From a virus (taxonomy: Duplodnaviria; Caudoviricetes), in the IMG/VR virus record IMGVR_UViG_3300013121_000054, positions 9,250-73,249 of that record: DNA of 64,000 nucleotides; one strand, 5' to 3'. Both the position numbers and the translations under genes were made by a program. Shown piece by piece: positions 2,781-24,122 of the stretch. Under the pieces are notes generated by a model that worked only from the letters and a program-made list of their open reading frames with translations, had not been told where the DNA came from and ran no database searches. Numbering within the stretch: position 1 is the stretch's first letter; the number at the start of each line of letters is the position of its first letter.

Positions 2781-4253
2781 CTAATAATCGATATTTTGCT
2801 TCTCTGCGACCACAGTAGTCGCATCGAGTGGAGATGGTTGAGGATTCAGCGTGTCTATCTCGATGTAGATCTTGTCTGTCGGAAGCAAGTGCAGGCTGGC
2901 CGATGTGCCAGTCAGCACAAGAGTATTGGCTGAATCGGGAGAAAGTGTGCTGAGGTCAAGCGGTCCACCATTAATCAGGGTCGGCCCGCCATAATTCTTG
3001 GTGATAATCAGCGTACCACCAGGCGCGCCACCGACCGAAATTGTCAGTCTCGTGATATCGCACTCACGAACCGGTGGCAAATAGGTGTAATAAGCAGTGT
3101 TATCAGCGAGCGCCAAGCCACCGCCCGGCGTGAAAGTGAGCAGCTCGCGCTTCGCCGCCGGCCCAATGATTGCCTGCTGGAAAAGATTTTGAACCGCCAC
3201 CACGCCATTCAGCAGCGGATTGAGCAGTGTCTTGTGATCGAGAGTCTGCGTACCATTCACGGTGGCCATTGTGTCGGTGGCTTCAGGAACCGTTACCGTC
3301 GCCCCTGCCGCAGTCTCCAGAGAATTGCTACCGAGCTTCGGGGCTGCGGTGAAGGTCTGCTTAAGGCTGAAAGTCTGCGCCGCATCGGTCTTGGCAGTAT
3401 TGCTGCTGACACTAACGGTGGTGGCGCCACTCGCAGTGGCAATGTTTATACCAGTGCCCTGTGTAAGCACCGTGCCTTGCGGGTAGTTTGGATCGGCAGC
3501 AGTGAGCACCACATGCGCCTGCTGGAGTGAATTGCCGTTTTTGTAGATCGGTGAAAGGGCAGCCAGGCGGGTAATGGCTGTAACCGTGGAGCCATTGCTG
3601 ACCACTTTCTGGAGAGCAAGCCCGGGCTGACCAGTAGGTGCCGCCGCGCCATTTGTCACAGCCACATGATTAACCGAGCCATCGCCGAGCAGGTAATCAT
3701 AAGTATCTTTGCTGGCGGTGTAGGTATAGCTATAGCCGCTCGACACCACACGGATGCCTTGTGAATAGGCGATTCCAGAGGGAGTGGTGACTGCAAAGCC
3801 GCTACCCGGCACCGAGCCTAAGAGCCCCGAGACTACCCAATCTGCAAATACATCGCCAGTGGTCAGCTTCGGTGTCAGATCCTTGTCGGAATACTGCCGC
3901 CAGACGGCCGCGCCGACTGTCGGATCTACGCAGACATATGCCTGCTTCGCTACAGCATCGATCCAGAGCGAGCCGATGCCATAACCGTCTGCCGAGTCGT
4001 CACCCACCGCAGGTGCGACAGATGCGCTCAGATTAGTCTTCGGACCATTGAGCGACTGCCAGCTCGTGCCGTTATACATCCAAAGCACGCCATTGTTTAG
4101 CACGTAGGTCTTATTGGCGGTTGGATTCGGGATCGCGCTTGTGGACTGGTTAAAATACAATCCGACAGAAGACGCAGTAGCCCAAGCAAAGGGCATAACA
4201 CATGCCGCAATGCCGATAAGCAGAGCGATCTTCTTCTTGTTACGCAGCATCAA
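2781..4253 (-). CDS. Tail fibre-like protein with N-terminal signal peptide
   Basis: Fibre motif APAVGDDSADGYGIGSLWID..AYVCVD..GAAVW; Thr/Ala/Gly-rich beta segments; N-terminus (M)LRNKKKIALLIGIAACVMPFAWA. Confidence 0.75.
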   Translation of the reverse strand: MMLRNKKKIALLIGIAACVMPFAWATASSVGLYFNQSTSAIPNPTANKTYVLNNGVLWMYNGTSWQSLNGPKTNLSASVAPAVGDDSADGYGIGSLWIDAVAKQAYVCVDPTVGAAVWRQYSDKDLTPKLTTGDVFADWVVSGLLGSVPGSGFAVTTPSGIAYSQGIRVVSSGYSYTYTASKDTYDYLLGDGSVNHVAVTNGAAAPTGQPGLALQKVVSNGSTVTAITRLAALSPIYKNGNSLQQAHVVLTAADPNYPQGTVLTQGTGINIATASGATTVSVSSNTAKTDAAQTFSLKQTFTAAPKLGSNSLETAAGATVTVPEATDTMATVNGTQTLDHKTLLNPLLNGVVAVQNLFQQAIIGPAAKRELLTFTPGGGLALADNTAYYTYLPPVRECDITRLTISVGGAPGGTLIITKNYGGPTLINGGPLDLSTLSPDSANTLVLTGTSASLHLLPTDKIYIEIDTLNPQPSPLDATTVVAEKQNIDY

Positions 4254-5616
4254 GCCCTTTCTCCTTTACGTCGTCACCTACGCCTACTTTGACGATCTTG
4301 CCACCACCCTTGATGTCTTCGCCATGCAAGTAGTCATGGCAGAGATTCTCAAATTGCCCTTTGGGTCCAAAGGAGGCCATGAGCGAAGCGACCGATCTGT
4401 CTGTCGCATCGAATCTATTTGTGCCATGCAGCTTGGCCAGGGCAGCCATAAAGGTAGCGCGTTTCTCGACCTGCACGATTAGCGGCAAGGTCGGTCTGCC
4501 GGTGATTGTCTCGATCACACCTGCATCGCCACCATTGCCAGCATCGCCACCAGAGCCGCCACCAGCGCCGCCGCTTCCGCCGGTCAGCGTCACGGTGCCA
4601 GAGCCGCTGAAACTCGGTGCAAATCTAAGATAGATACCGCCCGAGCCACCGCCGCCGCCACCACCTTTGCCGAGCCCTGCGCCGCCCTGGCCGCCGCTGA
4701 TGATGATCTTGCCGTTGTTAACGATGGTTGTCTGGCTAAAAAAGAAAACAGATCCACCCGCGCCGCCGCCGCCACCGCCATGGCCCGTGGCAGTTGCGAC
4801 GCCGCCATCGGAGCCAAACGACGATACTTGTCCACCGCTGCTGATCGTGATGCTGCCCGCAGCCACTATGCGAAGCGAGCCAGGAGCCGCGCCTGCGTCT
4901 TGGGAATCATCAGCATTTTGATCCGGATTGGGATCGGAAGGGTGTGGGTGTGGCGCATGGGTGACTGGAGGATTCCAAAACCGCAGCAAGCCAGAGCCGC
5001 CAGAATCCCAGTGGTTGAGCACAGCAGCATAGTGATCCCAAATCAGACCGCCGTGCAGGCGCGGGCGTCCGCCCAAATACTGCCTGCCGCCCGGGGCTAG
5101 CGATTTAGCGCCGCCGCCACCACCACCACCACCATAATTGCCGGTAGCTACGCTGGCACCCTGACCACCGCCGCCCCCAATGCCGGAATCCGAGCCGAGC
5201 CCATTACCGCCATCGCCGCCGACGCCACCATTGCCGCCGCCACCACCGCCGCCATCGCCCCCGGTGCCAGTGGTGTCACCGCCACCAGAGCCGCCACCAG
5301 GACCATTGCCGCCAGCACCTGGACCGCCGCCTTTATAGTCATGGTTAACGTTGATCAAGCCCAGGATCGACACATTGCCGAGGGCATTAAGCACAGAGCC
5401 GCTCGGTAGCACCTGGGCTTGAGATGCAGCAACCGTGAAATTCTGATGATTGCGTTGGATCTGGGTATTTTCAGCCACGCTCGTGCTGATCGTGACCGAT
5501 CCGTCGCTCCCATCGCCGCCGAATCTAACCCAGCCAGGGCGCTGCGCCGTAGCATTCGCCATGGCTCCAGACGACAGAAGAAGAGCAGCCACCAAGGCTG
5601 GAATCGTAAGCTTCAT
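4240..5616 (-). CDS. Glycine-rich fibre/adhesin subunit with signal peptide
   Basis: FGGDGSDG followed by repeated GG-rich strands (polyglycine-II-sandwich-like); N-terminus MKLTIPALVAALLLSSGAMA; located in the fibre module. Confidence 0.75.
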   Translation of the reverse strand: MKLTIPALVAALLLSSGAMANATAQRPGWVRFGGDGSDGSVTISTSVAENTQIQRNHQNFTVAASQAQVLPSGSVLNALGNVSILGLINVNHDYKGGGPGAGGNGPGGGSGGGDTTGTGGDGGGGGGGNGGVGGDGGNGLGSDSGIGGGGGQGASVATGNYGGGGGGGGAKSLAPGGRQYLGGRPRLHGGLIWDHYAAVLNHWDSGGSGLLRFWNPPVTHAPHPHPSDPNPDQNADDSQDAGAAPGSLRIVAAGSITISSGGQVSSFGSDGGVATATGHGGGGGGAGGSVFFFSQTTIVNNGKIIISGGQGGAGLGKGGGGGGGSGGIYLRFAPSFSGSGTVTLTGGSGGAGGGSGGDAGNGGDAGVIETITGRPTLPLIVQVEKRATFMAALAKLHGTNRFDATDRSVASLMASFGPKGQFENLCHDYLHGEDIKGGGKIVKVGVGDDVKEKGLDAA

Positions 5617-6903
5617 TTAGCCTCCCGCGTAAGCATCGAGTATGAAATAGTTGCCCGGGGCATTGCCTCCATCCGCCTTGAGGCGCACAGAGTCGCCACC
5701 TTTGACCAGTTCATACTTGTCTGAGTGTTCAATTTGATTGCTACCGGTCGGCCAGATCGTCGCCGTATAGCCGACGTTAGTATCAATCCGCTTGAGCGTG
5801 ATATCTTTCGTATCTACCGTGTCAGGGATGTGGATATCCACCGCAGGAGTCTGTACGTTCAAGAAGTAAACGCCAGAATCAGAGATGGTGAGGGGAAATG
5901 TATCCTCGTAATTGGGCGGATCGTCGAGGCCGCCGCCACCACCGCCACCACCGACAGTGCTCATCGACTGCCAGAGCGTGCCCGAGATCCACGTCCAGAC
6001 ATTAACGAGAGAGCCGCTCACGACCTCAAAAGCGATCATCCCTTGCGCCCCAGCGGTGCCATTGGGGTCAGCCGATACTACTTTGAACAGCGGCAGCTTC
6101 CACCCCGAGCCAGGGCTGGTGCTGGCCACTAGAAGATTGGCAAAGGGGAGAATCCCTTGAACTTCGGACGTGAGATCGATCTGCGGAGCCTGACCGCCGC
6201 CGCCCAGGTGGTGCTGAGTATAAAGACCGCCAGCGAAAGGCGCGCGAGGGTAGCCGGAATACGCATCAGGGCCAGCCACTTTGATGTCAGCATCGACCAC
6301 CTGGGTCTGCCCTTGGTGCAGGTTGATCAGGTACATCGGCACATAGCCCGCAGTGGCCGCTGGTGGCACTTCGCCGCCGCCGCCTGCCGGATTGCCATAG
6401 GTGAGCTTAATGTCTGCCAATCCATGCCTTATGCTTGGCGTGGGGTCGCCGCTGTCGGCAGGGCCGTCGAGCGGATTGCCAGGATCGGACGTGTTGTAAA
6501 ACTTTTTGACGGGCTCAGGGTCGCCTTCTCGCTGATCGTCGGATTGCTTGAATCCAACTTGTATAAGAGCCCATTTGTGCTGTCCGGTGGTCAGGTCGCT
6601 GATATCGAACTCAATCACCTTGCCATCTGTGGTGCCCATCTGGTAGACCAGCGTTGAGTCTTCATCGAATGGCCCCCACGGATCGGCATCCATGACGGTC
6701 TTCTGGAGCAGGATGCCTTGCCCGATGTTGATCGACATATCTGGAGAGAGTTGCGCGGTCGCTGCGAAATATCTCAGCGCAGCATCATCGCTACCCAGCA
6801 GCAGCTCGGCAAGCTTTCCGTAACCAGTGATTACATCCTTGATGAAGGACAGAAAATCGAAGGCGCGAATCTGTTGCAGAGACTCAATATAAGGTTTTTC
6901 CAC
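5617..6903 (-). CDS. Baseplate-proximal tail fibre protein
   Basis: Directly follows the baseplate wedge gene; likely start GTG 6903 (VEKPYIE) after AGGAGA; N-terminal anchor-like region, poly-Gly hinge, C-terminal beta domain. Confidence 0.75.
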   Translation of the reverse strand: MEKPYIESLQQIRAFDFLSFIKDVITGYGKLAELLLGSDDAALRYFAATAQLSPDMSINIGQGILLQKTVMDADPWGPFDEDSTLVYQMGTTDGKVIEFDISDLTTGQHKWALIQVGFKQSDDQREGDPEPVKKFYNTSDPGNPLDGPADSGDPTPSIRHGLADIKLTYGNPAGGGGEVPPAATAGYVPMYLINLHQGQTQVVDADIKVAGPDAYSGYPRAPFAGGLYTQHHLGGGGQAPQIDLTSEVQGILPFANLLVASTSPGSGWKLPLFKVVSADPNGTAGAQGMIAFEVVSGSLVNVWTWISGTLWQSMSTVGGGGGGGGLDDPPNYEDTFPLTISDSGVYFLNVQTPAVDIHIPDTVDTKDITLKRIDTNVGYTATIWPTGSNQIEHSDKYELVKGGDSVRLKADGGNAPGNYFILDAYAGG

Positions 6904-6925
6904 ACTTTCTCTCCTGGTCTTGAGC

Positions 6926-8305
6926 CTATGGCTCAAAGATGGCCCAGTAGAGATTCTGTGTGTCGTCTGGCGGCTGCGCAAAGGTAAAAGTGAGTGTATT
7001 CGGTGTTTTGTCGATCAACACCTGAGTATTCCACTCAGCCATCGCAAATGCCTCAAACGGTCGCCGAGTCTTGATCGGTATCACGAATTGTGTGGTGCCA
7101 GGCGGAATCTCGACTTTGCCGGCCTTGCCATCCGCAGTGGGAAAGAAGCCATACGAGATGGCAGCTCCGCTCGGGGCTGGCACAGCGGAAAAGTTTATCG
7201 CTTTGTGAGTGGAGTCGGTGGCATCCACGTCGAGCCACAGTGCTGTATTCCAGTTCGGCGTCACAATCAGCACATAGCTGCTCAGGGCAGCCGGCACTCC
7301 GATTCTCTGACTGATTGCATCTTGCCTGATCCGAAGTTGCCCAAAGCCTGGAGTGAGAAGAGAAGCTGCGATCCAGTCGCATCTGGCACCCTGCGGCGCA
7401 GCAGTCGAGAAGATCAGGCGGAAGCCACCGCCCGGCAGTCTCTTTGTGCTGACCGTTGTATTCCAGTTGGCATTTGTGAGCACCGCAAATGGTGAGTTGA
7501 AAGGTGGCGAGAGCGTGACATCGCGGAAGGTATTGCCCTCTCTGATGGTATAAGAGCCGCCAGTCGGCTGTGTGCGGAAGAACTGATTATTATACTGGCG
7601 GAATACTTTGGTGCCATACGCCTTGACGCGATTTACAAGCTCATCGAGCCGCGCCGCATTCAGGAACCACGAAGCATCAAACTGTGTATAAAAACTGGCA
7701 TCCCAGAAGCCATTCGCATCAAAAGCTACAAAGCCGGTGGACTTAAGACCCTTAACGCGCGGCAGCGGTGAGATGAATGCACCCTTCCATCGGAGCGCGG
7801 GATTTGCCCAGCGCGCAGGCGCCTGCTGGTTGTCCACATCCCAGTAGCTATTCGCATCAAAGGCGCCAGTGTCTTGCAGTCGCCACGGCTCGATCACGCG
7901 CGGAGTCAGCCCGGTGAAGCGTTCGATCATCTTAATCAGGGCTGGTCTGGTGGCAGCCGGCAAGAACATATTATCGATGATCCGTTGGCGAAAGGCTTCA
8001 TCACTCTCACCCAGCACCCTGGTGACCAGCGCGGGGAAGCCATAAGCAGGGCCAAGAAAATCATTCGCGACCAGATCGAGCGCTTCGCCCTCAGCCGTCA
8101 TCAGTCGGCAGGCGTGGAAGACGTAAAGCAAATTATTATTCGTCACCTCAAGCTCAGCGCCCACTGCTTTGAACAGTGAGTAAAGCTTGCCTCCTGGGGC
8201 TCGCGCAGTCTCACCAGCCCACTCTGCTGGAAAGGTAGAGAGGAGCCTCACGGCCCAATCGTCGGCGTCAAGATCTGTTCTGATTTGGGTGGGTATATCT
8301 GGCAT
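6926..8305 (-). CDS. Baseplate wedge protein (gpI/gp48-like) with C-terminal extension
   Basis: Follows baseplate J; LMTAEGEALDLVANDFLG..RVLGESDEAFRQRI..ATRPALI motif. Confidence 0.8.
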   Translation of the reverse strand: MPDIPTQIRTDLDADDWAVRLLSTFPAEWAGETARAPGGKLYSLFKAVGAELEVTNNNLLYVFHACRLMTAEGEALDLVANDFLGPAYGFPALVTRVLGESDEAFRQRIIDNMFLPAATRPALIKMIERFTGLTPRVIEPWRLQDTGAFDANSYWDVDNQQAPARWANPALRWKGAFISPLPRVKGLKSTGFVAFDANGFWDASFYTQFDASWFLNAARLDELVNRVKAYGTKVFRQYNNQFFRTQPTGGSYTIREGNTFRDVTLSPPFNSPFAVLTNANWNTTVSTKRLPGGGFRLIFSTAAPQGARCDWIAASLLTPGFGQLRIRQDAISQRIGVPAALSSYVLIVTPNWNTALWLDVDATDSTHKAINFSAVPAPSGAAISYGFFPTADGKAGKVEIPPGTTQFVIPIKTRRPFEAFAMAEWNTQVLIDKTPNTLTFTFAQPPDDTQNLYWAIFEP

Positions 8306-9520
8306 TTAGTATGTGCTCACGATGATCGACTCTGAGCGGATGCGCAAAATGTGCTTGTAGAAAACAGGAATATCATCGAAGCGATCAGGATCATCCTGAG
8401 TGAGCAGCACGCCGCTTGCTTCGCCGACGCCGAGAATCGAATCGTCCGAATCCTGTACCGCACGCAGCACCTGGCTGAAATAGAGAGTCTCGCCAATCTT
8501 GCGCGTGTTGACATGATCCAGCACAGCATTCTTGATTGTGTTTATCAGCTTCGATGACAGCACCACGCCTGGCTTAAGGTGCACGTAGATAGCGATCTGG
8601 TAGATCCAGATTTCCAGCGGTGGGATGACATCATATTCGACTGTGAAAGCTCGATACTCCTCAATCGAATCAGAGATTTGATCGAGCAGTTTCTTCGGCG
8701 GAGCGCCCGAGCCGTCATTGATGATCGCAAGAAAGAAACCATCTTTCGGCACGCCCTGCGCGTTTAGATTTTCATAGAGGGCGAAATCTAGCCCTTGGCG
8801 CACCTTCACGATTGCATAAGTGATAGCGCCCTTGGTGGCGCGAGCAAGACTGTTTATATAGAGGATGAATTGCGCCTTTACTTCATCGTTGGTGGCTTTA
8901 TCTTTACCATTCAAGATCGGCTGATCATTCGTGACAGACAAGCCGGTCAGTGTAGTGACTGTGAGCTGATCGGCCTGCACGTTATACGCGGTGCCAGCAT
9001 TAACAGATTCCACCCTGGCCGATACAGTCGTCTGCCCTGCTGGAATGACGTAGGCTCCAAGTGCGTTATCCCAGCCAGGCAAGCTGGTATCACCAATTAC
9101 CGTGTATTGAATCAGCGTGTCTTCTGTGCCGATCGTGGCGCCTTCAGCGATCAAGATGTCGCTCGTGGTCGGTGCAGCCAGGGAGAAAGTCACGAGCCCA
9201 ATAGCCTGCTGTGACTGCTGACGCTGCAAGCCATAATCGGCGATAAAGCTGTCAACATCGGACTCTGACTTGCAGGTCGAGAGTCGCGCATAGGCATATA
9301 CCGCATTGATCTGCCGCAGTATATACATGATGTTGATCGCGATCGATTCCATGATCGCGAGGAGTGGATCGCCCGGTGTGAGATTGGGCACCAGATTCAG
9401 TGCGCCCGCCCAGGAGGCAACCAGGGAGCTTACCAACTGCTGGAAAGTCTTGATCTTAAGTGCCACTTTGCTGCTGCTCCTGATTGCCAATGCTGAATTT
9501 AATGGCAGACTTTGTGCCAT
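8306..9520 (-). CDS. Baseplate J-like protein
   Basis: TPGDPLLAI.E, A.G.VTFS, GT.YNVQA.Q, VTN....NG.D motifs typical of baseplate J. Confidence 0.9.
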   Translation of the reverse strand: MAQSLPLNSALAIRSSSKVALKIKTFQQLVSSLVASWAGALNLVPNLTPGDPLLAIMESIAINIMYILRQINAVYAYARLSTCKSESDVDSFIADYGLQRQQSQQAIGLVTFSLAAPTTSDILIAEGATIGTEDTLIQYTVIGDTSLPGWDNALGAYVIPAGQTTVSARVESVNAGTAYNVQADQLTVTTLTGLSVTNDQPILNGKDKATNDEVKAQFILYINSLARATKGAITYAIVKVRQGLDFALYENLNAQGVPKDGFFLAIINDGSGAPPKKLLDQISDSIEEYRAFTVEYDVIPPLEIWIYQIAIYVHLKPGVVLSSKLINTIKNAVLDHVNTRKIGETLYFSQVLRAVQDSDDSILGVGEASGVLLTQDDPDRFDDIPVFYKHILRIRSESIIVSTY

Positions 9521-9884
9521 CTAGCAACCAGAAGTCGGCCTGGACTTTGAGAATATCCGGCCTTGGCTGGCTGAAAGTTATCACCGGGAAGAGACTGGGA
9601 TCAACAGCCGCATCCATCTTAATGCCCTGCTCTGTAACCTGCCTGATCTTCGCTTTCTGATCATCGGTGAATTTGCCTTGCACGAATGCGCGAAAAGAGA
9701 GCCCATACTGCGGGTGGAAGATGTAATCGGGCGGGATGATCTCACCGCTCAGAATGGTCTTACTATTTGTCAAAATGCGCCGAGCGATGCGAGAGACTAC
9801 CTCATCTTCTCCATCTTCGGTGACCAGTCCACCATTCTGATTGACTACAAGATCCTCGCCCCAATTTAATTTTAGAGCCGTCAT
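9456..9884 (-). CDS. Baseplate sheath initiator (gp46/gp25-like)
   Basis: WGEDLVV...GGL...G....RI.RRILTN....Y.FHP.YG pattern; lies between spike and J. Confidence 0.8.
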   Translation of the reverse strand: MTALKLNWGEDLVVNQNGGLVTEDGEDEVVSRIARRILTNSKTILSGEIIPPDYIFHPQYGLSFRAFVQGKFTDDQKAKIRQVTEQGIKMDAAVDPSLFPVITFSQPRPDILKVQADFWLLDGTKSAIKFSIGNQEQQQSGT

Positions 9885-9893
9885 GCCGCCTCC

Positions 9894-11678
9894 TTATACC
9901 GCAGTAACGTGCAATGTTTCTTCGCCTGAGCCCATGCTTGTAGTCGGCGGGCTGCTGTTTCCACCAGTCGGTAGCGGGTGAACGTGTGCATTGAACACGC
10001 CCGCCGCCGCCTCTGTAAGCAGCTTGAGGAAGGTGCCACCTGTCGGGCCGACCTTAACATCGCCAGCAGCCACTTGCAACAGACTCGTGCTGTAATGGCT
10101 GCCCCATGATCCAATCTGCATAGTCGAACCATCGATAAAGATATTGCCACTCGCAAACATATTGATCGTAGTTAGCGCACTCAGGGCGCCGAATGTGATG
10201 TGCTGGTTGTCTACATTGAAATCCAGCCCGGTAAAATTGGTTGCCGATTGCGCATATCCAGTGAGCGTCTCTTGCATCGGCACGTTGTATGTGCCGCCTC
10301 TGCCGTCGCTCAGATTTAAGGTGGTAGTGCTATTGCCCAGGATGAGCGCAGAGCCCGACGAGATCCGCGTGACACCACCGCTCACCATATTGGCGGTGCC
10401 GGTCGCGATCTGGGTCATGGTAATGACATTTGTATTCATCAGCGCAGAACGCAGCAAAAGCTGTCCACTGGGAGTATCAGGGCTACCGATATCGCGAATA
10501 CCACTCGATATGCGCACCGTCTGACCACCGATCGATACCGTGGCAGGTGCACCGACCAGATTCGGGATTGTGATCTCATCAGAGCGCATGCCCATCTGAA
10601 TATCGTTACCCTGAAGCTTAAGCACCGAATTTGGTACCAGCCCTGAGGATGGCTGAGCGTTAATGATTATCTGCTCTGAAGTGAGATTAGTCTGTCCAAG
10701 CGGACCATCGACGCGGGTATTGATCGAGTTATATGGCCGGAAGCCTAAACTGCCTTCGTTAAGACCTCTATTGGCAATCAGGTTAATCTGCCCGGCTCGC
10801 TGCGGCACCTGTCCGTCACTGCCGATATCGACGGTGGCGCCAGTCAGTGTGGCGCGCTGCGCACCGCACGCTTGCAAGAGAGTAGCGAACATTGTCAGAT
10901 TTGTGGTGACGCCCTCATAGCCAAAGGTCTGCACCGGTTGGTGCGCTTCCAGGGCGAGCCCGTCTGTTTTGGTGAGTTGCCCCCCGATCAAATCAAGCTC
11001 TGTCTCTGCCTGGATGAAAATGTTGCGACCCGCCTGCTCAGATATGCTGTTCTGCGCATAGATAGCGATGTTGCCAACGTCTGCGCGAATGTTGATGTCA
11101 TTCTCGTGAGAGATCAGATCCATGCGTTTCTGAGCTTCGGCCTTGAACTGATTCTGAGCCTTGAAGAAGATCGAACCAGCGGCGGTGAAATTCATATCCT
11201 TCAGCGCGTTGACATCGAAATCACCCACCGCCTGCATAAAAATATCGCCATTCTCCAGCATCCTGATGATCGAGCCGCGGCTGTGTCTGATTAGCAGCTC
11301 GCCTGGCTTCAGCTTGTTATCGCCGCCGATCTGATCTATGTCTGGCAGTGCTGTAGCGGGTGCCCGCATCGGCGACAAATAAAACATAACAGCGCAAGCA
11401 TAGACCCGCTCATCTCTTTCAAGAATGCAGACAAGAACCGGCTCGCCCTTCTTTGGATAATACTGAATGCCAACCTGGTCACCGGCCCAGATCGAACCAA
11501 GGGGCATCCAGTCTGATATTTCGGCGATATCTGCTGAGTCACGCTGTGTGAGTAGCTCGACCCTGACATGATTGAGCTGCGGATCGTATTCAGCGATCAC
11601 GCCCAGGTGGAATGCGCGATAATCACCCACCGCCTGCACGGCCGCATGTTTCATCTGATGCGCGAATTCTGATGACAT
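9894..11678 (-). CDS. Baseplate central spike (gpV/gp45-like), unusually long
   Basis: N-terminal OB-fold (GVIAEYDP..VRVEL..SDWMPLGS.WAG), long beta-repeat region, C-terminal FNAHVH HxH tip motif. Confidence 0.85.
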   Translation of the reverse strand: MSSEFAHQMKHAAVQAVGDYRAFHLGVIAEYDPQLNHVRVELLTQRDSADIAEISDWMPLGSIWAGDQVGIQYYPKKGEPVLVCILERDERVYACAVMFYLSPMRAPATALPDIDQIGGDNKLKPGELLIRHSRGSIIRMLENGDIFMQAVGDFDVNALKDMNFTAAGSIFFKAQNQFKAEAQKRMDLISHENDINIRADVGNIAIYAQNSISEQAGRNIFIQAETELDLIGGQLTKTDGLALEAHQPVQTFGYEGVTTNLTMFATLLQACGAQRATLTGATVDIGSDGQVPQRAGQINLIANRGLNEGSLGFRPYNSINTRVDGPLGQTNLTSEQIIINAQPSSGLVPNSVLKLQGNDIQMGMRSDEITIPNLVGAPATVSIGGQTVRISSGIRDIGSPDTPSGQLLLRSALMNTNVITMTQIATGTANMVSGGVTRISSGSALILGNSTTTLNLSDGRGGTYNVPMQETLTGYAQSATNFTGLDFNVDNQHITFGALSALTTINMFASGNIFIDGSTMQIGSWGSHYSTSLLQVAAGDVKVGPTGGTFLKLLTEAAAGVFNAHVHPLPTGGNSSPPTTSMGSGEETLHVTAV

Positions 11679-13338: not shown

Positions 13339-13790
13339 TACTGGAAGAGACCTAGCTGAGTGAAGGCATTGTTAATGAGTTGCGTTATACCGCCAGAGCC
13401 ATTGCTGGTGGTTGAGCCAGCGGTGCCTGGATTGTTTTGATCGATCAACGGCCTGAATTCAATCTCGTATTCTATGTAACCGCTGCGCTCGCGCGCTACG
13501 TAGTTTTGCACCACGCCAGTGAATCGATATCCCTGCCAGGTAAGATCAATCTCCTCTGCGTCGATGCGCAGTTGATCCAGGGCTTTCGATCTGTCCTGGG
13601 CATCCTGACCGGTGATAAAGCCTTTCCAGTTGATCTGCTCGGGCGCATAAGCGCCAAACTTCTGAGCGATCCTGCCGCCACCGGGCACCGGGTGGATAGC
13701 GAGACTCTGGAAGCCACCCAGCGCCAGCTCTTCTGGCGTCTCTTCTTCGGTGAGCTTTACCGACCCAATATTGACTTCAAATAGAGGCAT
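13338..13790 (-). CDS. Tail tube initiator (gpU/DNA-circulation-N-like)
   Basis: Follows the tape measure; I.WKG..G.DA.DR.KALD.LR...L.W..Y motif. Confidence 0.7.
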   Translation of the reverse strand: MPLFEVNIGSVKLTEEETPEELALGGFQSLAIHPVPGGGRIAQKFGAYAPEQINWKGFITGQDAQDRSKALDQLRIDAEEIDLTWQGYRFTGVVQNYVARERSGYIEYEIEFRPLIDQNNPGTAGSTTSNGSGGITQLINNAFTQLGLFQ

Positions 13791-16515: not shown

Positions 16516-16521
16516 TCAGCC

Positions 16522-16716
16522 TCAGCCTTTCGGTGGCGGATTAGGTGGCGGATCTGTGACCTCGCCAGTCTCCCAATTGATTATGCGCCCGTTTATGTCC
16601 TCGACAACATACAAGAAAGCCTTGCGCTCGATTTCATCCATCGAGCATGCACTTTTCCAATCTACGCCGCACTGAGCGACCTGCACGCACTCCCTGAAAT
16701 CAGGGTCTTCATACAT
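16522..16716 (-). CDS. Tail assembly chaperone, downstream part (T-like)
   Basis: Small ORF overlapping the chaperone stop, before the tape measure. Confidence 0.65.
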   Translation of the reverse strand: MYEDPDFRECVQVAQCGVDWKSACSMDEIERKAFLYVVEDINGRIINWETGEVTDPPPNPPPKG

Positions 16717-17188
16717 TTTTTTTTACATCGTCCAACTGGACGAAAGCAAAATTCTCTATGAACTTGTGCCCCACAATCTCGGTGCCGTCGTCGCCGAGCT
16801 GATCGGCGATCAGCATGATGTCATCTTTGCTCTGCGGTGGATACAACTGCCTGCCGTTGATCGAGCGCACATACATGAGCGCTCTGGCGATACCCATCGA
16901 GGGATCATCCTGGCACCCTCGATACATCTGCCCGAGCTTAAAATGTAGAGCGCCTTTCGGCCTCGCCATTTCGATCGCTGCGCCATTGGGCAGGCTGAAC
17001 TTGATCACCTGGTGATAATCAGCGCTCGGCTCTGCTGGCACCTGCACTACCTGCTGCGATTGGGATTCTGCACGCTTTGCCTCAATCATTCGCTCTTGTC
17101 TTTCGAGCGCCGCCTCTTGTTCATCGGCGAAGTTAGCTTGATCGCCAGTCTTAATGACTGTGCGCTGGAGTTTCTTGTCTTGCGTCAC
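16709..17188 (-). CDS. Tail assembly chaperone (G-like)
   Basis: Between tube and tape measure; ends in an A9 run. Confidence 0.7.
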   Translation of the reverse strand: MTQDKKLQRTVIKTGDQANFADEQEAALERQERMIEAKRAESQSQQVVQVPAEPSADYHQVIKFSLPNGAAIEMARPKGALHFKLGQMYRGCQDDPSMGIARALMYVRSINGRQLYPPQSKDDIMLIADQLGDDGTEIVGHKFIENFAFVQLDDVKKNV

Positions 17189-17191
17189 GGT

Positions 17192-17650
17192 TTAGCCTCG
17201 CTCTAAATATTGAGCGTCGAACATCAATTCTTGCTCGACCTCTTTATCCGTGATGAAGTGCCCGAAGTCGAAATCGCCGAGCGAGCATCCATACATCACG
17301 TAAGTGTCCTTTGTACCGTCACGATTCTGAATGTCGATCTGCAAATTGAACAGAGGCAGCTCACCCAGATTGAAGAAATCGAGCGCCAACTGAATAGCAA
17401 GATCTGTTAATCTTCCATTCCTGCGCACGAATTTGATTGTGCCGCTCCAGCCGTTCGGGATATGCCGCCTGATCGCGCGCCCGCGAGCGCTGATTGGCTT
17501 GCACTCCAGCTTGGTATTTTGAGCCTTAGCCTGGAAGGACATAACGTGTCCAAGCGTGGTAGCAGCGAAGACCTCCCCGGTATCGATCCGGCTAAAGGTG
17601 ATTGTGCAGTCTTGCCCGACGTTGATGTCATTCGGCAGAAGTGGTGGCAT
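17192..17650 (-). CDS. Tail tube protein
   Basis: 152 aa directly after the sheath; P.GWSGTI.F.R pattern. Confidence 0.85.
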   Translation of the reverse strand: MPPLLPNDINVGQDCTITFSRIDTGEVFAATTLGHVMSFQAKAQNTKLECKPISARGRAIRRHIPNGWSGTIKFVRRNGRLTDLAIQLALDFFNLGELPLFNLQIDIQNRDGTKDTYVMYGCSLGDFDFGHFITDKEVEQELMFDAQYLERG

Positions 17651-17691
17651 TGATAAAACTCCTTTGCTTAATCAGATCGCGCGTCGGAAAC

Positions 17692-19245
17692 CTAGGCCGC
17701 TTGCTGAACTTCTTGAATGGAGATCACACCCAGACCGGCATTGAGAGTGGCGATCAGGTACTTGATGATTCCCATATATTCGACCTTGATCAGCACCCGG
17801 CAGAAGCCGAGTTTCAGATCGTCGATCGTGTTATTGGTCAGGTCGCAGATCGATTGGTGTCCAGCAATCTGATCGTCTGACTTAAGAGACTCGTGGAAAG
17901 TATTGAGCACAGAAACGATCGCAGCCCTGGTGGCATCATCAGACCTGTAGGTCATACGCTCGTGCACAAACGGCCCCAGGATGCCCAGGTAGGAATGCTT
18001 GAGGTAATTTGTCATGCGAGCGAAGGGGATCAGGTTTACCGAGTCATCACTGCTCGTGGTCTGACCGTGGCGCACACCGAAGACCTGACCGCGAGGAATC
18101 GGCTTTGTCACCAGGTTGATGCCATTCGATTCAAGCTGCTCCAGATCGGATTGCCCGTAAGGCGTCGCAGCCTCAGTGGCATAAACACCCTGAACCTGCT
18201 TGTTACCAGGCGATTCACCAGGCCCAAGCGACAGCAAGCGCCCCATAAGAATCGGATCTGGCTGAATCCAGTCTTGGGTCTTATTTACGCTGTCGGCAAC
18301 TTTGCACCAGTCTTTCATGAGCACCACATTCTGAGTGTTCAAGCCGGCTGTCTTCTTCTGCGTCACCGCAGTAGATACACTCGTGCCGAAAGCGCAAGAA
18401 ACGCTGGCAAGCATCTCCTCACTGTCAGCAAGAGCCGCTATCGCCGCCCAGTTGCTATTGCCCGTCACGCCAGCCGCCCAGAAGCCCGAGCAGGGCGGAT
18501 CTTGTGCACGCAGCGCATAAAGCCCTTTGTTCGTGGTGGCATCGCCAATCACATCGGCGGCAGCTACACTGCTGCGTCCATCTGTGCCACCCGTGAGGGT
18601 GAAGGTGCCGAGAGCTGGAGCGATCGCCGAGTTATTCGGCGCGCCCGCAGTGATGTAGTCGCTTGCAGCCTGATTAATAAGACCGCCATTGATTGCCTGC
18701 GCCAAAAGATTCCAGAAGTTGCTGGCACCCGAGCCATCAGTCTTGAGATTCTTGTAAACCTCGACGGTCTGACCATCCCACCGGATGATCGTGACGGTGA
18801 CCGAATTGGTAACCGTGCCTGCTTCCAACTTCACTACAATGCTGTTACCAAGAATTCCGCTGTACTTAGCGGTAAGCGTGATGCCATCAAGCGCAGTGCC
18901 AGATGTCGTATCTTTCAGAGTCTTGCTTGCTTGCGCATCAGTACCATCGGTAACACGCGCCATATACAGTTGCAGCTCGCCCTCGGAAGCCTGCTTAAAG
19001 AACTGCTCCGCCTGCCAGCACAAATCATAGGGATCGGTGAGGCGCAAGGCGCTCACGCCACCAAATAGAGCGGCTGCATCTGCTGGACTTCCGACCAGTG
19101 CGATTGGCGGCCCCCAGGAAGCGGTACCAGCGACGCCACCAGCATTGGTAGGAGTGCGCGATTGCCGCGTGCTGAGTTTCGAGCTCAAGACATAAGCGTT
19201 TGAAGACTTCGGAATGAAAGACGAAGTACCATTGATTAAGGGCAT
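17692..19245 (-). CDS. Tail sheath protein
   Basis: 517 aa; GVAGTASWGP, ARVTDGTD..A, TA.YSG..GN, LTGGTDG, S.SNK-like SPGNK. Confidence 0.92.
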   Translation of the reverse strand: MPLINGTSSFIPKSSNAYVLSSKLSTRQSRTPTNAGGVAGTASWGPPIALVGSPADAAALFGGVSALRLTDPYDLCWQAEQFFKQASEGELQLYMARVTDGTDAQASKTLKDTTSGTALDGITLTAKYSGILGNSIVVKLEAGTVTNSVTVTIIRWDGQTVEVYKNLKTDGSGASNFWNLLAQAINGGLINQAASDYITAGAPNNSAIAPALGTFTLTGGTDGRSSVAAADVIGDATTNKGLYALRAQDPPCSGFWAAGVTGNSNWAAIAALADSEEMLASVSCAFGTSVSTAVTQKKTAGLNTQNVVLMKDWCKVADSVNKTQDWIQPDPILMGRLLSLGPGESPGNKQVQGVYATEAATPYGQSDLEQLESNGINLVTKPIPRGQVFGVRHGQTTSSDDSVNLIPFARMTNYLKHSYLGILGPFVHERMTYRSDDATRAAIVSVLNTFHESLKSDDQIAGHQSICDLTNNTIDDLKLGFCRVLIKVEYMGIIKYLIATLNAGLGVISIQEVQQAA

Positions 19246-19363
19246 TATGTGATTCTCCGAAAGTAGCTAGCTCTGTCCGAGAATCAACTTAGGTTAGGTT
19301 TTTCGCAGGCGCAAAGGTAACTTGTGCGAAAAACAACACAATCGCATCTGGTGGCGCAAAAAC

Positions 19364-20191
19364 TTACTGAAGAGTAAAAAGAGGCGCGAGAATCTCCACA
19401 AGCATCTCTTTGCCCTGGATGTTGTATTCCAGGCTTGCGCGAAAATCTCGACGATAAAGCGATCGATCCTTGTCGGCATCATTGACAGCGCTGCCCTCGT
19501 AGATCACACGCACTGCATCAAGCACATTCGGGTAGACCTCGACATTGAATCCATAGTCGTGCTGGAGTTGCGAGAGAAGAGGCTCAAGGAATTCCGTCAA
19601 GGAATCTCTATCGTCTTCTGAACCAGCCCATGCACTCACCTGGGCGACTGCATACTGGCGATGAATCTGCGGCAGCGCTACGCCAACATTACCAACATTT
19701 ACCTGGAGCCCAGGCATGGCATCGCTAAGCGTGATCACTGCACCGGCTGCTGAAGCTGTGAGGTAGTTGCTCAGGTCGGCACTGATTGCCGCTGCCAGCT
19801 TTGCAGCAAAAGATGAGAGGGTCTCGCCGCTTGCCGCTCTCACGGCCGTGGCGCGTTGCTGTCTTGGAAACAGTACGGCGATCCCATCATTCTCGATCAC
19901 GCCATTGCTGAGCGTTATAGTCATTAGGTCGTCACTGAGCGTCGCGCGCACCTCTGCCGGTGTCATTACCTGGGCGAGATCGGCGGCTTTCCACCTGGTG
20001 ACATTTCGAGAAAATCCAGTGTCAACAACACTGATCAAAGTTTCATCGCCGCCCGAAACTTGATCAAGGCATTCTTTGGGTGGCCAGCCCCGCGCTACTC
20101 CCACCTTGGTATCTTTCAGGGTATCGAACTGCGCCAGACCGGCCTTGATCTGGCTTACCAATCCATCGAGCGCTTTGTTTATGGTTGCCAT
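19364..20191 (-). CDS. Tail terminator/neck protein with an inserted beta-sandwich-like domain
   Basis: Upstream of the sheath; V.RGWP, C-terminal LYRRDF...EY. Confidence 0.7.
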   Translation of the reverse strand: MATINKALDGLVSQIKAGLAQFDTLKDTKVGVARGWPPKECLDQVSGGDETLISVVDTGFSRNVTRWKAADLAQVMTPAEVRATLSDDLMTITLSNGVIENDGIAVLFPRQQRATAVRAASGETLSSFAAKLAAAISADLSNYLTASAAGAVITLSDAMPGLQVNVGNVGVALPQIHRQYAVAQVSAWAGSEDDRDSLTEFLEPLLSQLQHDYGFNVEVYPNVLDAVRVIYEGSAVNDADKDRSLYRRDFRASLEYNIQGKEMLVEILAPLFTLQ

Positions 20192-20193
20192 AT

Positions 20194-20400
20194 TTAAGAC
20201 TGCTCGACCGGGGGATTGTAGACTTGCTCGCCCGTGTCCGAAATTTGATAATTTTGGATCGTTCTATCGCCGTTAACCGGCTGAAACAGGCAAAAGCGGG
20301 CATCACTCGGGCAATTGACGCCGGGTTGCGGTGTAGGGCCACTCCATACTGACGATGCGCACGAATCGCCCGCGAATTGGATCAGATAGTCATCATTCAT
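20194..20400 (-). CDS. Small protein, possible fibre assembly chaperone
   Basis: 68 aa, coupled (ATGA) to the long fibre gene. Confidence 0.5.
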   Translation of the reverse strand: MNDDYLIQFAGDSCASSVWSGPTPQPGVNCPSDARFCLFQPVNGDRTIQNYQISDTGEQVYNPPVEQS

Positions 20401-23400
20401 GCGGCTGGAACCTCTTTGATTGAATCACCGACATACAACAAGGTCACCTTTTCGCCCGCCAGATCTTTGCCGTGCAAAAGATCGAAACAAAGCGAATCAA
20501 ATTTTTCGGGCTGTTCCCAAGCCGCAAGTATTTCAGCCGCTTCTTTGTGTGTGAGTTGCACAATGCCGCGATCTGTTCTGCCTTGAAATTTGCGCAAATG
20601 GCAAACAAAATCAATCGCCGGTGAACGCTCAAGAAGTGCGATTGTTGGCAAATTTGGACTGCCGGTGATGCTTGTTAAAACACCCGAGCTGCCATCAGCG
20701 GCGTTGGTTGTTAGCCCGGTGCCACTGCCCTTGGTGCCGCCTGCGACGGTTGGCGCCACCGTATTTGTGATCGTCGGCGCCATCTCAATAATGCGACCAC
20801 CACCACCACCGCCGCCGACATAGCCCGATGAACCGGCCGCCGCGCCACCGTTACCACCGGTGCAATGCACCGCTGAGCCCGTGTTGCAAGTGATCGACGT
20901 TTGCGAATAAAGGCCGATAAAGCCGCCCGCACCACCGCCGCCGCCGCCAGCATTACCGGCCACGCCCGCCGAACCATTAGATCCGTCTGCTTGGATCGTG
21001 CCACCGTTAGCTATGCTGATCGCGCCAACCGCACAAAGGCGAAATGAGCCACCCTTGCTGCCACCAGCGCCGCCCCTGTTGGTCCCGTCACCGCCGCCAG
21101 CGCCACCAGAGCCTCCAGTATCCATTTCGCGCACCGAGGCAGCCTTGCCGCCTTCGCCGCCGCCATCGGATGATGAGCCGAATGGTGCGGTACCACCGCC
21201 ACCATTACCGCCAGCGCCCCCATAACCGCCACCCGCGCCGCCCGAGCCAGCTGTGCCGCTTAGCTTAACTCCACTGCCAGCCAATGAACCAAGTGCCTGT
21301 TGCATCTGGAGAGCCGTCACCACCGCGTTTGGGGCCGAGCGTCCATTGCCCAGATTGCCGACCGTGGTAGTGCCGCTAAAAGTCGCGGTGCTGTTGCAAT
21401 TAATAATAATCCCGGTGTCTGGTGTGTAAGTAGTTGAAGAGGATTGGCTAAACGTCGTCGCGTTGATCTGCTTGATCGTGTCTGAGGTTGTGCCTTTTGT
21501 GATCGCGCCATCAGATCCGTCACCACCAAATTTCACCACTGAGGTTAGCGCGGTGCCAACAAAGGCCGTTGTCGCAATTTTCGCGCTGCTATCACCCGCC
21601 GATTGCGTCGTTGTCGTTGGGCTGCCCGCGAGCGCTACGCTCGATTTGATCGCCGTCGCGCCGGTGTTATCAACTGTCACGTCGCCACTGAAAGTCGTTG
21701 GTGCATAGGCCGTGCCGCCCGAGTTGCCGATCGGGATTTGTCCGCTTGTCGGCGCGGTCGTCGTATTCAATCCGCCTTTGCTTGTTGGGATTGTCGGCAA
21801 CTGTGATGTCGTTGCGGTGCCGCTCAAATCCGTAAAGTCAGGCTGCGCGCCCGAGAACACACCCTGCGCGCTCATCGCCGTTAAAAACTGATGCGAAACC
21901 GATGATTTTGTTTGCGCCGTTGTGCTATCAGCGTCGGGAATATTGACAGTGCGATTGCCTGTCAACGTTTGCAGCAAGAAGCGCGCATAGCTTGTGCCGT
22001 TGCCGAGATAAAGATCGCGAAAGGCTTTTGTGTTTGAGCCTAAATCAATCGTACCGTTAGCATTGGGCGTTTGTGCGACGCTGTAATTGTTGGCATTGTT
22101 GACATAAGCCAAATTGCTAATGCCCGTCAAATCGCCAAGATCCGGTTGCGCCTTGGTCTGAACGCCCGCGCTCGTGATATTAGTCAAAAACTGGTGCGAT
22201 GTCGCTGTTGTTGGTTGAACGGTGTTTGAATCGGCATCGGGCAACGTGCAAACGCGCGCCGCCGTGGTTGTGGCACTTGTAACTTTGTTGTTATTGGTCG
22301 CGGCGCCACCGACATACAAATTGCCAAACGGCTTCGCGGTCGTGCCGAGATCTACGCCGCCGGCCGTGCTCGGCGTCTGGCTTGCTGAAAAGTTGTTGGC
22401 GTTGTTGACCCGCGCCAAATTGGAAGTATCCGACAAGTCAGTTGATGCGCCTTGCGCTGCCGCTGTCAATTGACCGCGTGAATTAACCGTAATGGTTGCC
22501 GCGCCATAGCTGCCGGGCGTCACCGCCGTATCGGCAATTGACAAATTTCTATCTGCGCTAAGATCGCCCCCGCCTTGAAGCCCGCCACTTGTATTGACGG
22601 CTCGCGAGGTATTAACGAGTGTTTGCGTAGTCGGCGAGCCCGCATTATCGCGCACCTTAACCGCGCCGCTATTCACCCAAATTTCGCCGGCTGATGGCGA
22701 ACCGGGATCGGTCTTCTTTGGCAATACAACCGTTTGAGTCGATGCGCCAAAATCTTGTGTGTGAGTGCCCGAATATACGTTACTCGTGGTGGTCGAAACA
22801 TCCCCGCCGCCGCCACCGCCACCAAGAGTGGTGCCGCTGCCCCAAGAGCCCGAGGCCTTTGGGCCGTAAATCGTGTAAGGGTTTGTGCCGGTGTCGAGAT
22901 AAAAATCACCATCAACACCGAGCCCGCTTGATGGCGCGCCGGAACCGTTGAGAATCGTTTTCCCGTCAGCACCAGCCGCGCCGGTCGGGCCGATCAATGA
23001 CGTGCTCGATCCCCAAACACCCGACGCTTTCGGGCCGTAAATCGCACTAGCGACGGTATCAATATAAAAATCGCCATTGGCACCAAGACCGTTTGACGGT
23101 GCGCCGCTTCCACTAAGAATCGTGCGACCATCTACGCCATTTGTACCGTTTGTGCCATTTGTTCCATTGGTGCCGTTTGTTCCATTTGTTCCCGCCGGAC
23201 CTTGGCTGCCTTGCGGGCCTACAAGATTTGTCGGCGACGGCCACACTCCCGATGCTTTCGGACCATAAAAATCGTAGTTTGATGTACGCAGATAGAAATT
23301 GCCATCTACTCCAGTACCGCTAGATGGCACGCCAGAGCCATAGAGGATTGTATTGCCCTGGATGCCTTGCAAGCCCTGGATGCCTTGTATGCCTTGGATA

Positions 23401-23693
23401 CCTTGCAATCCCTGAGCGCCTTGCGGGCCGGTCAGATCGAAGCCACTGCCCCAGGTGGTATTCTTTGGTCCATAAAATTTATGGTTCGTGTAATCGACAT
23501 AGTAATCACCATCCGCACCCAGACCGGATGAAGGTACCCCTGAGCCGCCGCGCACAGTATTACCGGCTCCAGGCGGGCCTTGTGTTCCAACCGTCAAGAC
23601 GGTGATCTGATTCTGGCTCGACGGCTGTGCTAGTGCTGCTGTCTGCATAAGCAGGAGCACGAAGAGAGTCAGAGCTGCCAGAAAGCGTTTCAT
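20397..23693 (-). CDS. Long collagen-repeat fibre (collar/whisker-like) with signal peptide
   Basis: G-X-Y runs (GPQGAQGLQGIQG.., GTNGTNG..); 4 copies of TI..GSG.PS.GLG.DGD.Y.D...YGPK; a duplicated ~95-aa module; Gly-rich distal domain; N-terminus MKRFLAALTLFVLLLMQTAALA. Confidence 0.8.
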   Translation of the reverse strand: MKRFLAALTLFVLLLMQTAALAQPSSQNQITVLTVGTQGPPGAGNTVRGGSGVPSSGLGADGDYYVDYTNHKFYGPKNTTWGSGFDLTGPQGAQGLQGIQGIQGIQGLQGIQGNTILYGSGVPSSGTGVDGNFYLRTSNYDFYGPKASGVWPSPTNLVGPQGSQGPAGTNGTNGTNGTNGTNGTNGVDGRTILSGSGAPSNGLGANGDFYIDTVASAIYGPKASGVWGSSTSLIGPTGAAGADGKTILNGSGAPSSGLGVDGDFYLDTGTNPYTIYGPKASGSWGSGTTLGGGGGGGDVSTTTSNVYSGTHTQDFGASTQTVVLPKKTDPGSPSAGEIWVNSGAVKVRDNAGSPTTQTLVNTSRAVNTSGGLQGGGDLSADRNLSIADTAVTPGSYGAATITVNSRGQLTAAAQGASTDLSDTSNLARVNNANNFSASQTPSTAGGVDLGTTAKPFGNLYVGGAATNNNKVTSATTTAARVCTLPDADSNTVQPTTATSHQFLTNITSAGVQTKAQPDLGDLTGISNLAYVNNANNYSVAQTPNANGTIDLGSNTKAFRDLYLGNGTSYARFLLQTLTGNRTVNIPDADSTTAQTKSSVSHQFLTAMSAQGVFSGAQPDFTDLSGTATTSQLPTIPTSKGGLNTTTAPTSGQIPIGNSGGTAYAPTTFSGDVTVDNTGATAIKSSVALAGSPTTTTQSAGDSSAKIATTAFVGTALTSVVKFGGDGSDGAITKGTTSDTIKQINATTFSQSSSTTYTPDTGIIINCNSTATFSGTTTVGNLGNGRSAPNAVVTALQMQQALGSLAGSGVKLSGTAGSGGAGGGYGGAGGNGGGGTAPFGSSSDGGGEGGKAASVREMDTGGSGGAGGGDGTNRGGAGGSKGGSFRLCAVGAISIANGGTIQADGSNGSAGVAGNAGGGGGGAGGFIGLYSQTSITCNTGSAVHCTGGNGGAAAGSSGYVGGGGGGGRIIEMAPTITNTVAPTVAGGTKGSGTGLTTNAADGSSGVLTSITGSPNLPTIALLERSPAIDFVCHLRKFQGRTDRGIVQLTHKEAAEILAAWEQPEKFDSLCFDLLHGKDLAGEKVTLLYVGDSIKEVPAA

Positions 23694-23696
23694 TTT

Positions 23697-24122
23697 TTAC
23701 AATCCTTGCTTAACGGTAAATGAGCCCCGCGCAAGCGGCCACTTGGTCGCTGGCGTAGTGGGAAACACGAGATAGACTTCGTAAAAGAGAGTGCCGGCTG
23801 GCAGTGCTTGCGTGACGGTGCTCGGCACCAGCACGCTGAACTTGCCATTCTGGCGATCGGTAAAAACAAAAGTTGAATTGGAATCTTCGCTGCTGATGGT
23901 CGCATATACGGTGGCTAAGTTTTTCGATGCGATCTTCAGCGCGCCAGTGCAGCCCGAGAGATTTACCGGCGTGTTATCAAGCTTGTTTTTCCACTCGAAA
24001 GTACGCCCAACAGATTCACCCTGCTCGATCACGATCGGGATGTCTGCGCCGATCGCCCATGCTGGGAAATACGAAAGGGCGAAGATTAGAAAATTGAGGG
24101 CGAAAGCTAGAAAGAACTTCAT
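23697..24122 (-). CDS. Ig-like (BppU-N-like) fibre-anchoring protein with signal peptide
   Basis: I.IEQGES...PVNLSG.T....I....G.F.V....T.T..L..G...YE pattern; N-terminus MKFFLAFALNFLIFALSYFPAWA. Confidence 0.65.
   Translation of the reverse strand: MKFFLAFALNFLIFALSYFPAWAIGADIPIVIEQGESVGRTFEWKNKLDNTPVNLSGCTGALKIASKNLATVYATISSEDSNSTFVFTDRQNGKFSVLVPSTVTQALPAGTLFYEVYLVFPTTPATKWPLARGSFTVKQGL

Follow-up and report, generated by a model that had tools for sequence, protein, structure and literature searches.

Predicted Sec signal peptides on fibre-type and anchor-like proteins in the late operon of an uncultured contractile-tailed phage

We analysed a window of 64,000 nucleotides (nt), bases 9250-73249 of the 73.2-kb virus record IMGVR_UViG_3300013121_000054; the same sequence is also present on a 225,577-bp Joint Genome Institute (JGI) contig. 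Its predicted genes are those of a temperate, contractile-tailed phage, with minus-strand morphogenesis genes that span about 35.9 kb down to 1 kb. Embedded in this late operon, with starts that overlap or abut their neighbours, are four minus-strand genes whose products begin with predicted Sec signal peptides, and these are the subject of this work. The first encodes a fibre-type protein of 489 amino acids (aa) at 2781-4250/4253, with a 24-aa signal segment (4179-4250, MLRNKKKIALLIGIAACVMPFAWA) and a predicted cut after AWA, before T25. The second encodes a 458-aa Gly-rich protein at 4240-5616, with a 20-aa segment (5557-5616, MKLTIPALVAALLLSSGAMA) cut after AMA, before N21. A 1098-aa fibre is encoded at 20397-23693, with a 22-aa segment (23628-23693, MKRFLAALTLFVLLLMQTAALA) cut after ALA, before Q23. 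The fourth gene, at 23697-24122, encodes a 141-aa LtfC/p132-like beta-sandwich protein, with a 23-aa segment (24054-24122, MKFFLAFALNFLIFALSYFPAWA) cut after AWA, before I24. An earlier note on this DNA, made from the sequence alone, had quoted these N-termini, and the translations of all four genes begin exactly as it gave them.

Each of the four genes starts at its first in-frame start codon. For the 489-aa gene, the signal was counted from the ATG at 4250, and the TTG at 4253 would add one residue; the 489-aa gene thereby overlaps the end of the 458-aa gene by 11-14 nt. The 458-aa gene, starting at 5616, is immediately adjacent to the preceding stop codon (5617-5619). The 1098-aa gene begins at 23693, 3 nt past the upstream stop, and the start at 24122 forms an ATGA overlap with the upstream gene. 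Shine-Dalgarno motifs (AGGAG, GGAGG, AGGA and AGGTG) precede the four first starts by 4-10 nt. Over the next 60 codons of the four genes, no later in-frame ATG, GTG or TTG was preceded by such a motif; the sole exception was codon 47 of the 1098-aa gene, which has a weak GGAG in front of it. The earlier opinion that these N-termini are probably real was therefore borne out by the ribosome-binding sites as well as by the abutting or overlapping upstream stops. Dual starts yielding a signal-less isoform were rejected, because the downstream starts have no ribosome-binding sites.

Leu, Ile and Phe abound in the hydrophobic h-regions of the four segments, each h-region leading to an AxA site. When the record's 102 open reading frame (ORF)-based genes were ranked by N-terminal hydrophobicity, the four came 2nd, 3rd, 4th and 8th, and the top eight were all signal-like. 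A signal-anchor-release (SAR) domain, which is a weakly hydrophobic N-terminal span rich in Gly, Ala, Ser and Thr without a cleavage site, was rejected on account of these h-regions and the AxA that follows them. Lipoprotein signals (signal peptidase II) and twin-arginine translocation (Tat) signals were also rejected, as all four lack both a Cys at the cut site and an RR motif.

To call signal peptides we used a von Heijne-style rule of our own, not a trained predictor, which considers the charge of the n-region, an 8-residue hydrophobic core, small residues at -3/-1 and the absence of proline near the cut. Evidence of this kind from a single sequence is only suggestive, and the comparative evidence carries the weight, because the crude rule is not specific on its own. 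The comparison set consisted of the window and five related uncultured phages, found by protein searches and look-ups: L001/L013, L007/L012, L009 and L011 are Logan contigs of 26-69 kb, and L017 is from IMG/VR. L016 and L020, neighbours of L017, carry the same genes. All relatives share one gene order, namely Baseplate_J, a UCP028438-like gene, a fibre of about 415-430 aa, at least one protein of 161-383 aa, a protein of 496-762 aa, small genes and lysis genes. Across the six phages, the proteins encoded after the baseplate fibre gene all passed the signal rule (17/17), versus none of the neighbouring baseplate, fibre and core proteins (0/24). Type I signals have a short, positively charged n-region and an h-region of about 7-15 residues, and measure about 18-30 residues in all. 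The 17 predicted here, four in the window and 13 in relatives, are 15-24 residues long, carry K or R close to the start and reach at least 1.9 in an 8-residue Kyte-Doolittle window; the predicted cut follows Ala in 16 and Gly in one, a small residue occupies -3 in all 17, and most have a helix-breaking Pro or Gly within six residues before the cut, as c-regions commonly do. Related phages thus keep the signal peptides, as judged by this rule. The earlier note had also stated that the baseplate-anchored fibre (5617-6903) and the core virion proteins carry no signal, and the rule gave the same result. Its reading of fibre-type structural-module proteins with classical Sec/signal peptidase I signals stands in so far as our own rule predicts them.

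The way in which these N-termini have diverged is informative. Between relatives of the 489-aa protein, identity is 21.9% in the signal region, compared with 51.3% over residues 25-240 and 28.7% in the C-terminal halves, which are partly unrelated. In an alignment of the 489-aa protein and six relatives (A1), there is no invariant column before residue 30, compared with more than 50 invariant columns in the 216 residues after the signal; the mature end next to the signal is conserved as DVGxFVR. The features of the segment are thus kept while its sequence drifts, and a conserved mature end lies next to it, so the segment evolves as real signal peptides do. The signals look selected rather than accidental. 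From these sequence features and their conservation, we consider it highly probable that the four proteins are Sec-exported and cleaved by signal peptidase I.

The bodies of the four proteins appear to be built of modules found elsewhere in phage virion fibres and fibre anchors that have no signal. The 489-aa protein consists of the signal peptide, a conserved N-terminal domain (residues 25-240) and a variable C-terminus. It contains a 51-residue module, TAPAVxDD...GYxVGSxW...YxC.D...GAAVW, which also occurs in annotated Rhizobium and Pseudomonas phage tail fibres; residues 69-119 are 53% identical to residues 28-78 of gp30, a signal-less virion protein of the N4-like roseophage DS-1410Ws-06. 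The cultured-phage proteins that share the module are gp30 and the tail fibres of Rhizobium phage RHph_N3_13 and Pseudomonas phage SM1. In gp30 and the RHph_N3_13 fibre, the two records that were translated, the module lies 28-75 residues from a signal-less N-terminus; in contrast, the window protein is longer than gp30 by 41 N-terminal residues, and the signal peptide makes up 24 of these. Uncultured fibres whose N-termini are ordinary and signal-less also share residues 120-240. A PDB sequence search with the A1 profile returned nothing, and an AlphaFold2 (AF2) model from a 7-row alignment had a predicted local distance difference test score (pLDDT) of 40 and was unusable beyond residues 28-120.

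The baseplate-proximal fibre encoded next to this gene group (428 aa, 5617-6903, no signal peptide) behaves differently. It can be aligned over its full length in all six phages (alignment A3, mean column identity 54%), and the variable, host-range-like parts therefore sit on the proteins predicted to be exported. Compared with this uniform fibre, the conserved N-domain and variable C-terminus of the 489-aa family form the pattern expected of a receptor-binding protein. A C-terminal domain common to the 428-aa and 489-aa proteins was considered and rejected, as the two showed no similarity there.

The 458-aa protein has an FGGDGSDG motif after the signal, a Gly-rich repeat body and a C-terminal module of about 90 aa. 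The body and the C-terminal module recur together at the C-terminus of the 1098-aa protein and of 710-719-aa relatives (alignment A2). Where the Gly-rich domain stands alone, a signal peptide lies 6-16 residues before its FGGxGxxG start, and the 458-aa relatives in L001, L007, L009 and L017 all begin with a signal peptide. In the ESM Atlas, the 458-aa model found only vague beta-strand-repeat and viral look-alikes, and the C-terminal module had no match. A tblastn search of phages with the 458-aa protein gave no match, and NCBIfam gave no family for any of six proteins searched. Residues ~215-310 form a His/Pro-rich insert of about 95 residues (HAPHPHPSDPNPDQ) that is absent from all seven A2 relatives. 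One relative of the Gly-rich domain, P0002 (349 aa), combines a signal peptide with a hydrophobic C-terminal anchor and basic residues behind it; the protein resembles one of the cell surface, which would place this domain at work outside virions.

The 141-aa protein matched PF23926 (LtfC-like) with 27.8 bits against a cut-off of 27.0, and phrog_1084 with E = 1.5e-18. An exhaustive search yielded 43 relatives, 39 of them single-domain proteins of 111-127 aa. In these 39, a median of one residue precedes the column that aligns with I24, where the mature protein is predicted to begin, and the signal rule made no call on any of them. The 141-aa protein therefore appears, from this comparison, to have gained its signal exactly at the domain boundary, as 23 residues with all signal features. 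The only downstream in-frame start of its gene, a GTG at codon 31, has no ribosome-binding site and would cut the first strand of the fold. An AF2 model had a pLDDT of 88 overall, about 50 for residues 1-23, and was confident from residue 24. Its best PDB matches were the 139-140-residue T5 tail-tip chains 7qg9_J/L, which we take to be the T5 collar protein p132; further matches were 8hqz (DT57C), 6v8i (80alpha), a mycobacteriophage baseplate and 4v96 chain AH from a lactococcal phage baseplate, presumably TP901-1 BppU. Template modelling (TM) scores were about 0.5-0.6, and generic immunoglobulin (Ig) domains scored only somewhat lower. On this model, the protein has the Ig-like sandwich of the T5 p132/BppU-type virion anchors. 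In two records of cultured phages, the family is located among large structural genes; a scan of viral contigs with the 141-aa protein found no relatives. Like T5 p132/LtfC, the window protein matches PF23926, has a fold like the T5 tail-tip chains and adjoins a long fibre gene, as fibre anchors do. Unlike its 39 homologues, none of which carries a signal peptide, and the known members, which assemble in the cytoplasm, it adds 23 N-terminal residues.

The adjoining 1098-aa protein contains collagen-like triplets, a GxGxPxxxxGxxGDxYxD fibre repeat, a Gly-rich domain and the C-terminal module that it shares with the 458-aa protein. Among its best 120 relatives, 49 pass the signal rule, mostly cellular surface proteins, and 71 fail, many of them with phage-fibre-like N-termini. 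A PDB sequence search with this protein returned nothing. The earlier remark that phage fibres normally lack signal peptides agrees with what was found here: none of the 39 homologues of the 141-aa protein has one, nor do the cultured-phage fibres that share the 489-aa modules.

The remaining morphogenesis genes lie on the minus strand in this order: the large terminase (31215-32582), portal (29665-31215), scaffold (28562-29266) and major capsid protein (26889-28259), then a block of eight genes that includes the 141-aa and 1098-aa genes (19364-26823), then the sheath (17692-19245), tube (17192-17650), tape measure (13790-15991) and spike (9894-11678). The sheath-initiator position is at 9456-9884, where the L001 counterpart gave a faint Sheath_initiator match. 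Two wedge proteins without signal peptides follow, one with Baseplate_J (404 aa, 8306-9520) and one UCP028438-like (459 aa, 6926-8305), and lead to the 428-aa fibre. Scans of viral contigs with the 261-aa and 275-aa proteins of the eight-gene block gave no relatives. The cultured phages included no close DNA relative of the window, and the phage collection contains no cultured representative of the lineage.

Promoter-like and terminator-like sites in the window were at or below shuffle expectation, and none bracketed the four genes. The G+C content of these genes (54-59%) is like that of the rest of the window. A Gly-rich protein and a 489-type protein are present at the same operon position in all six phages. 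A moron or lysogenic-conversion reading was rejected because the genes have no promoter or terminator of their own, normal G+C and fixed synteny, the 141/1098 pair itself being patchy.

Three small genes follow the 489-aa gene, at 2274-2735, 1813-2133 and 1557-1829. The protein at 2274-2735 is signal-less, and a small signal-less protein occupies the same place after the last signal-bearing fibre gene in L001 (13325-13765), L009 (12173-12580) and L017 (10186-10518). It has an Asp/Gly-rich motif like an EF-hand loop, DGDHDGHAD in the window and DENHDGIPD in L017; a role as a chaperone of fibres or as a partner that binds calcium is possible.

The minus-strand lysis cassette comprises the 106-aa protein at 1813-2133, a 90-aa holin-like protein with two membrane spans at 1557-1829 and a lysozyme-type endolysin at 967-1560; no spanin pair was recognised in it. 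The endolysin is soluble, with neither a signal nor a SAR segment, and the holin must therefore let the folded enzyme through, which we take to mean large lesions. The earlier note had listed two further exported proteins, starting at 1829 and 42005. The latter passed the rule with a score of 5.67, whereas the former is more like a two-span holin, because it has a second membrane span (VLVFPLYVGGGAAVGFGAWCLFGG) and lies between the 106-aa gene and the endolysin. Outside the tail module, signal-like N-termini were seen on the proteins at 41526-42005 and 36993-37478 and on a 143-aa protein left of the window (record 4039-4470). The 159-aa product of 41526-42005 has a long, coiled-coil-like C-terminal half. 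Going by its signal-like N-termini, the phage would export an unusually large share of its proteins.

Towards the right end of the window, an integrase gene lies at 59816-60853. A gene for a 902-aa RecJ-like exonuclease (60774-63482) converges on it, the two sharing about 80 nt at the end of the integrase gene. The best relative of the exonuclease in a genome, at only 56% identity, is in an unclassified metagenome-assembled genome (MAG), so the gene may be of host or of phage origin; no border of the prophage was found. Two tandem ARAGORN 'tRNA-SeC' calls at 59272-59447 were considered as an integration site and rejected as false, because they lie inside a 12-nt tandem repeat (CCGGTGCTTCAG) and Rfam found no tRNA there.

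Textbooks describe tailed-phage morphogenesis as wholly cytoplasmic. The signals on these proteins lead us to propose a course with two compartments. The signal features, their conservation, the fibre modules and the operon embedding were all seen in the sequence and its comparison. The four proteins would be translated late, coupled to the tail genes. From established Sec biology we infer that the proteins would then cross the inner membrane via SecYEG and lose their signals, leaving the mature ends T25, N21, Q23 and I24. We further hypothesise that they would fold and oligomerise in the periplasm while assembly of the head, sheath, tube, baseplate and 428-aa fibre goes on in the cytoplasm, that the holin would open the inner membrane and let the two compartments mix inside a still intact outer membrane, and that the exported fibres would then dock on the particles, the 1098-aa fibre via the p132-like 141-aa anchor and the 489-aa family via its conserved N-domain. 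We favour this whole chain, docking after holin opening included, tentatively and with rather less than even confidence, because it can explain the modules of virion type, the anchor, the fixed place in the operon and a conservation pattern like that of receptor-binding proteins. We regard an assembly route in which the host-recognition fibres and their p132-like anchor are Sec-exported, mature in the periplasm and are snapped onto the particles only between holin triggering and outer-membrane rupture as possible, but on balance doubtful.

Several observations weigh against assembly in two compartments. The literature searched describes no tailed phage with exported fibres or with virion parts that cross the inner membrane. 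By itself, the signal rule is passed by 9 of 110 genes, but also by 30 of 372 spurious ORFs (8%); at a score of at least 5.5, five genes pass versus three spurious ORFs. The particle already has a signal-less fibre, that of 428 aa. The same modules occur in secreted cellular proteins (P0002, P0074 and P0075, and 49 of the 120 collagen/fibre-repeat homologues), and fibre modules therefore do not prove virion membership. In the relative L012 (3039-6063), the capsid gene is directly followed by the sheath gene with no counterpart of the eight-gene block, so the 141/1098 pair is accessory. The two-membrane envelope of the host is itself something we infer only from the short signals of 20-24 residues and the small single-domain endolysins of the lineage. 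Cysteines in these proteins are few (1-7), with no obvious pairing seen, so disulfide folding offers no obvious reason for export; export driven by disulfides was rejected for the same scarcity.

A different outcome, unlikely in our view and still the strongest rival, is that the proteins leave the cytoplasm without ever being built into the particle, and act late on the producer's own envelope. They could, for example, bind, mask or cut the receptor or a polysaccharide of the cell surface, which would keep progeny from being lost to debris or protect the cell from superinfection. The T5 lipoprotein Llp acts in this way on FhuA. Envelope action draws on the same export evidence, that is, the 17 signals in 17 proteins and the extension of the 141-aa protein, and it fits a phage that encodes further signal-bearing proteins (those at 36993-37478 and 41526-42005 and the 143-aa protein) and whose particle owns a signal-less fibre. 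A variable C-terminus would suit variable surface glycans as well, and fibre modules do function in secreted cellular proteins. However, known exclusion and receptor-masking proteins are small and accessory, whereas those considered here range over 370-1098 aa, and two occupy the same operon position in all six phages. A p132/BppU-type anchor has no known role besides holding fibres on the tail, Pfam and NCBIfam scans detected no enzyme domain, and a Sec signal alone reaches only the periplasm, while receptors face outwards. The exported moron proteins of phages, lambda Lom and Bor, T5 Llp and Cor, offer a partial parallel. They too are phage-encoded, carry Sec or lipoprotein signals and lie in or near the tail-fibre region, but they are small, accessory, often under their own promoter and unrelated to fibres, unlike the large, fibre-built, tail-coupled and lineage-fixed proteins of the window. 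In Porphyromonas gingivalis phages, predicted Sec signals on capsid, spanin and unknown genes have been interpreted as exploiting the general secretion system of the host (Matrishin et al., 2023, PMC10367356); those signals are on non-tail genes, in contrast to the ones described here, and the term 'tail fiber' appears nowhere in that paper.

The earlier note had also suggested lysogen surface adhesins. These would be fibre-like trimers comparable to the mosaic adhesive trimer (MAT) fibres of Bdellovibrio, expressed from the prophage or from spontaneously induced cells. There are precedents for a double life of this kind, as the phage SM1 proteins PblA and PblB double as bacterial adhesins. 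The MAT fibres of Bdellovibrio bacteriovorus begin with a signal peptide, continue with a conserved, beta-rich N-domain (about 130 aa) and end in mosaic tips (Caulton et al., 2024, PMC10769870). The 489-aa family resembles them in being phage-tail-fibre-like, with a signal peptide, a conserved domain directly after it and swapped distal parts, and MATs work outside the cytoplasm; the likeness is one of layout only. P0002, with its signal peptide and C-terminal membrane anchor, also speaks for a surface role of the Gly-rich domain. However, MATs are chromosomal genes of a predatory bacterium, whereas the window genes belong to a phage late operon, and many MATs carry an S74 chaperone-protease domain that Pfam did not find in the window proteins. 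The coupling to late tail genes, the lack of any own promoter or terminator above chance, the normal G+C and the two genes fixed in six phages weaken the suggestion further, as does the failure to find an outer-membrane translocation module (autotransporter barrel, type IX secretion system (T9SS) C-terminal domain or sorting signal). We regard it as improbable.

It is just as hard to believe that the N-termini are not working cleavable signals, but uncleaved anchors or unused starts on proteins that stay in the cytoplasm as ordinary fibres: the high false-positive rate of our rule on random ORFs would allow it, and the public call of the 1098-aa gene, whose exact sequence is absent from one collection, may use another start, but an identical sequence is present in the ESM Atlas, small -3/-1 residues stand at the right distance in all 17 signals with Pro or Gly near the cut in most, the Leu/Ile/Phe-rich h-regions are unlike SAR segments, the downstream starts lack ribosome-binding sites and would, in the 141-aa gene, truncate the first strand, and the signal features persist at 22% sequence identity.

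If it is true that receptor-binding fibres of a myovirus mature in the periplasm, this would change the view of how host-range proteins fold and how they are to be expressed for engineering and for depolymerase and receptor-binding protein (RBP) biotechnology, and it would change how the timing of lysis is coupled to the completion of particles. It would also change the annotation of fibres in metagenomes, where a signal peptide currently argues against a place in the virion. Should the proteins never become part of the particle, they would make up a class of large envelope effectors, built of fibre modules, expressed late and conserved throughout a phage lineage; no such class has been described. 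The window lineage is a clean test case: a single-domain anchor family that is signal-free in all 39 homologues appears to have acquired a signal here exactly at the domain boundary, and the contrast of 17/17 versus 0/24 runs along one operon.

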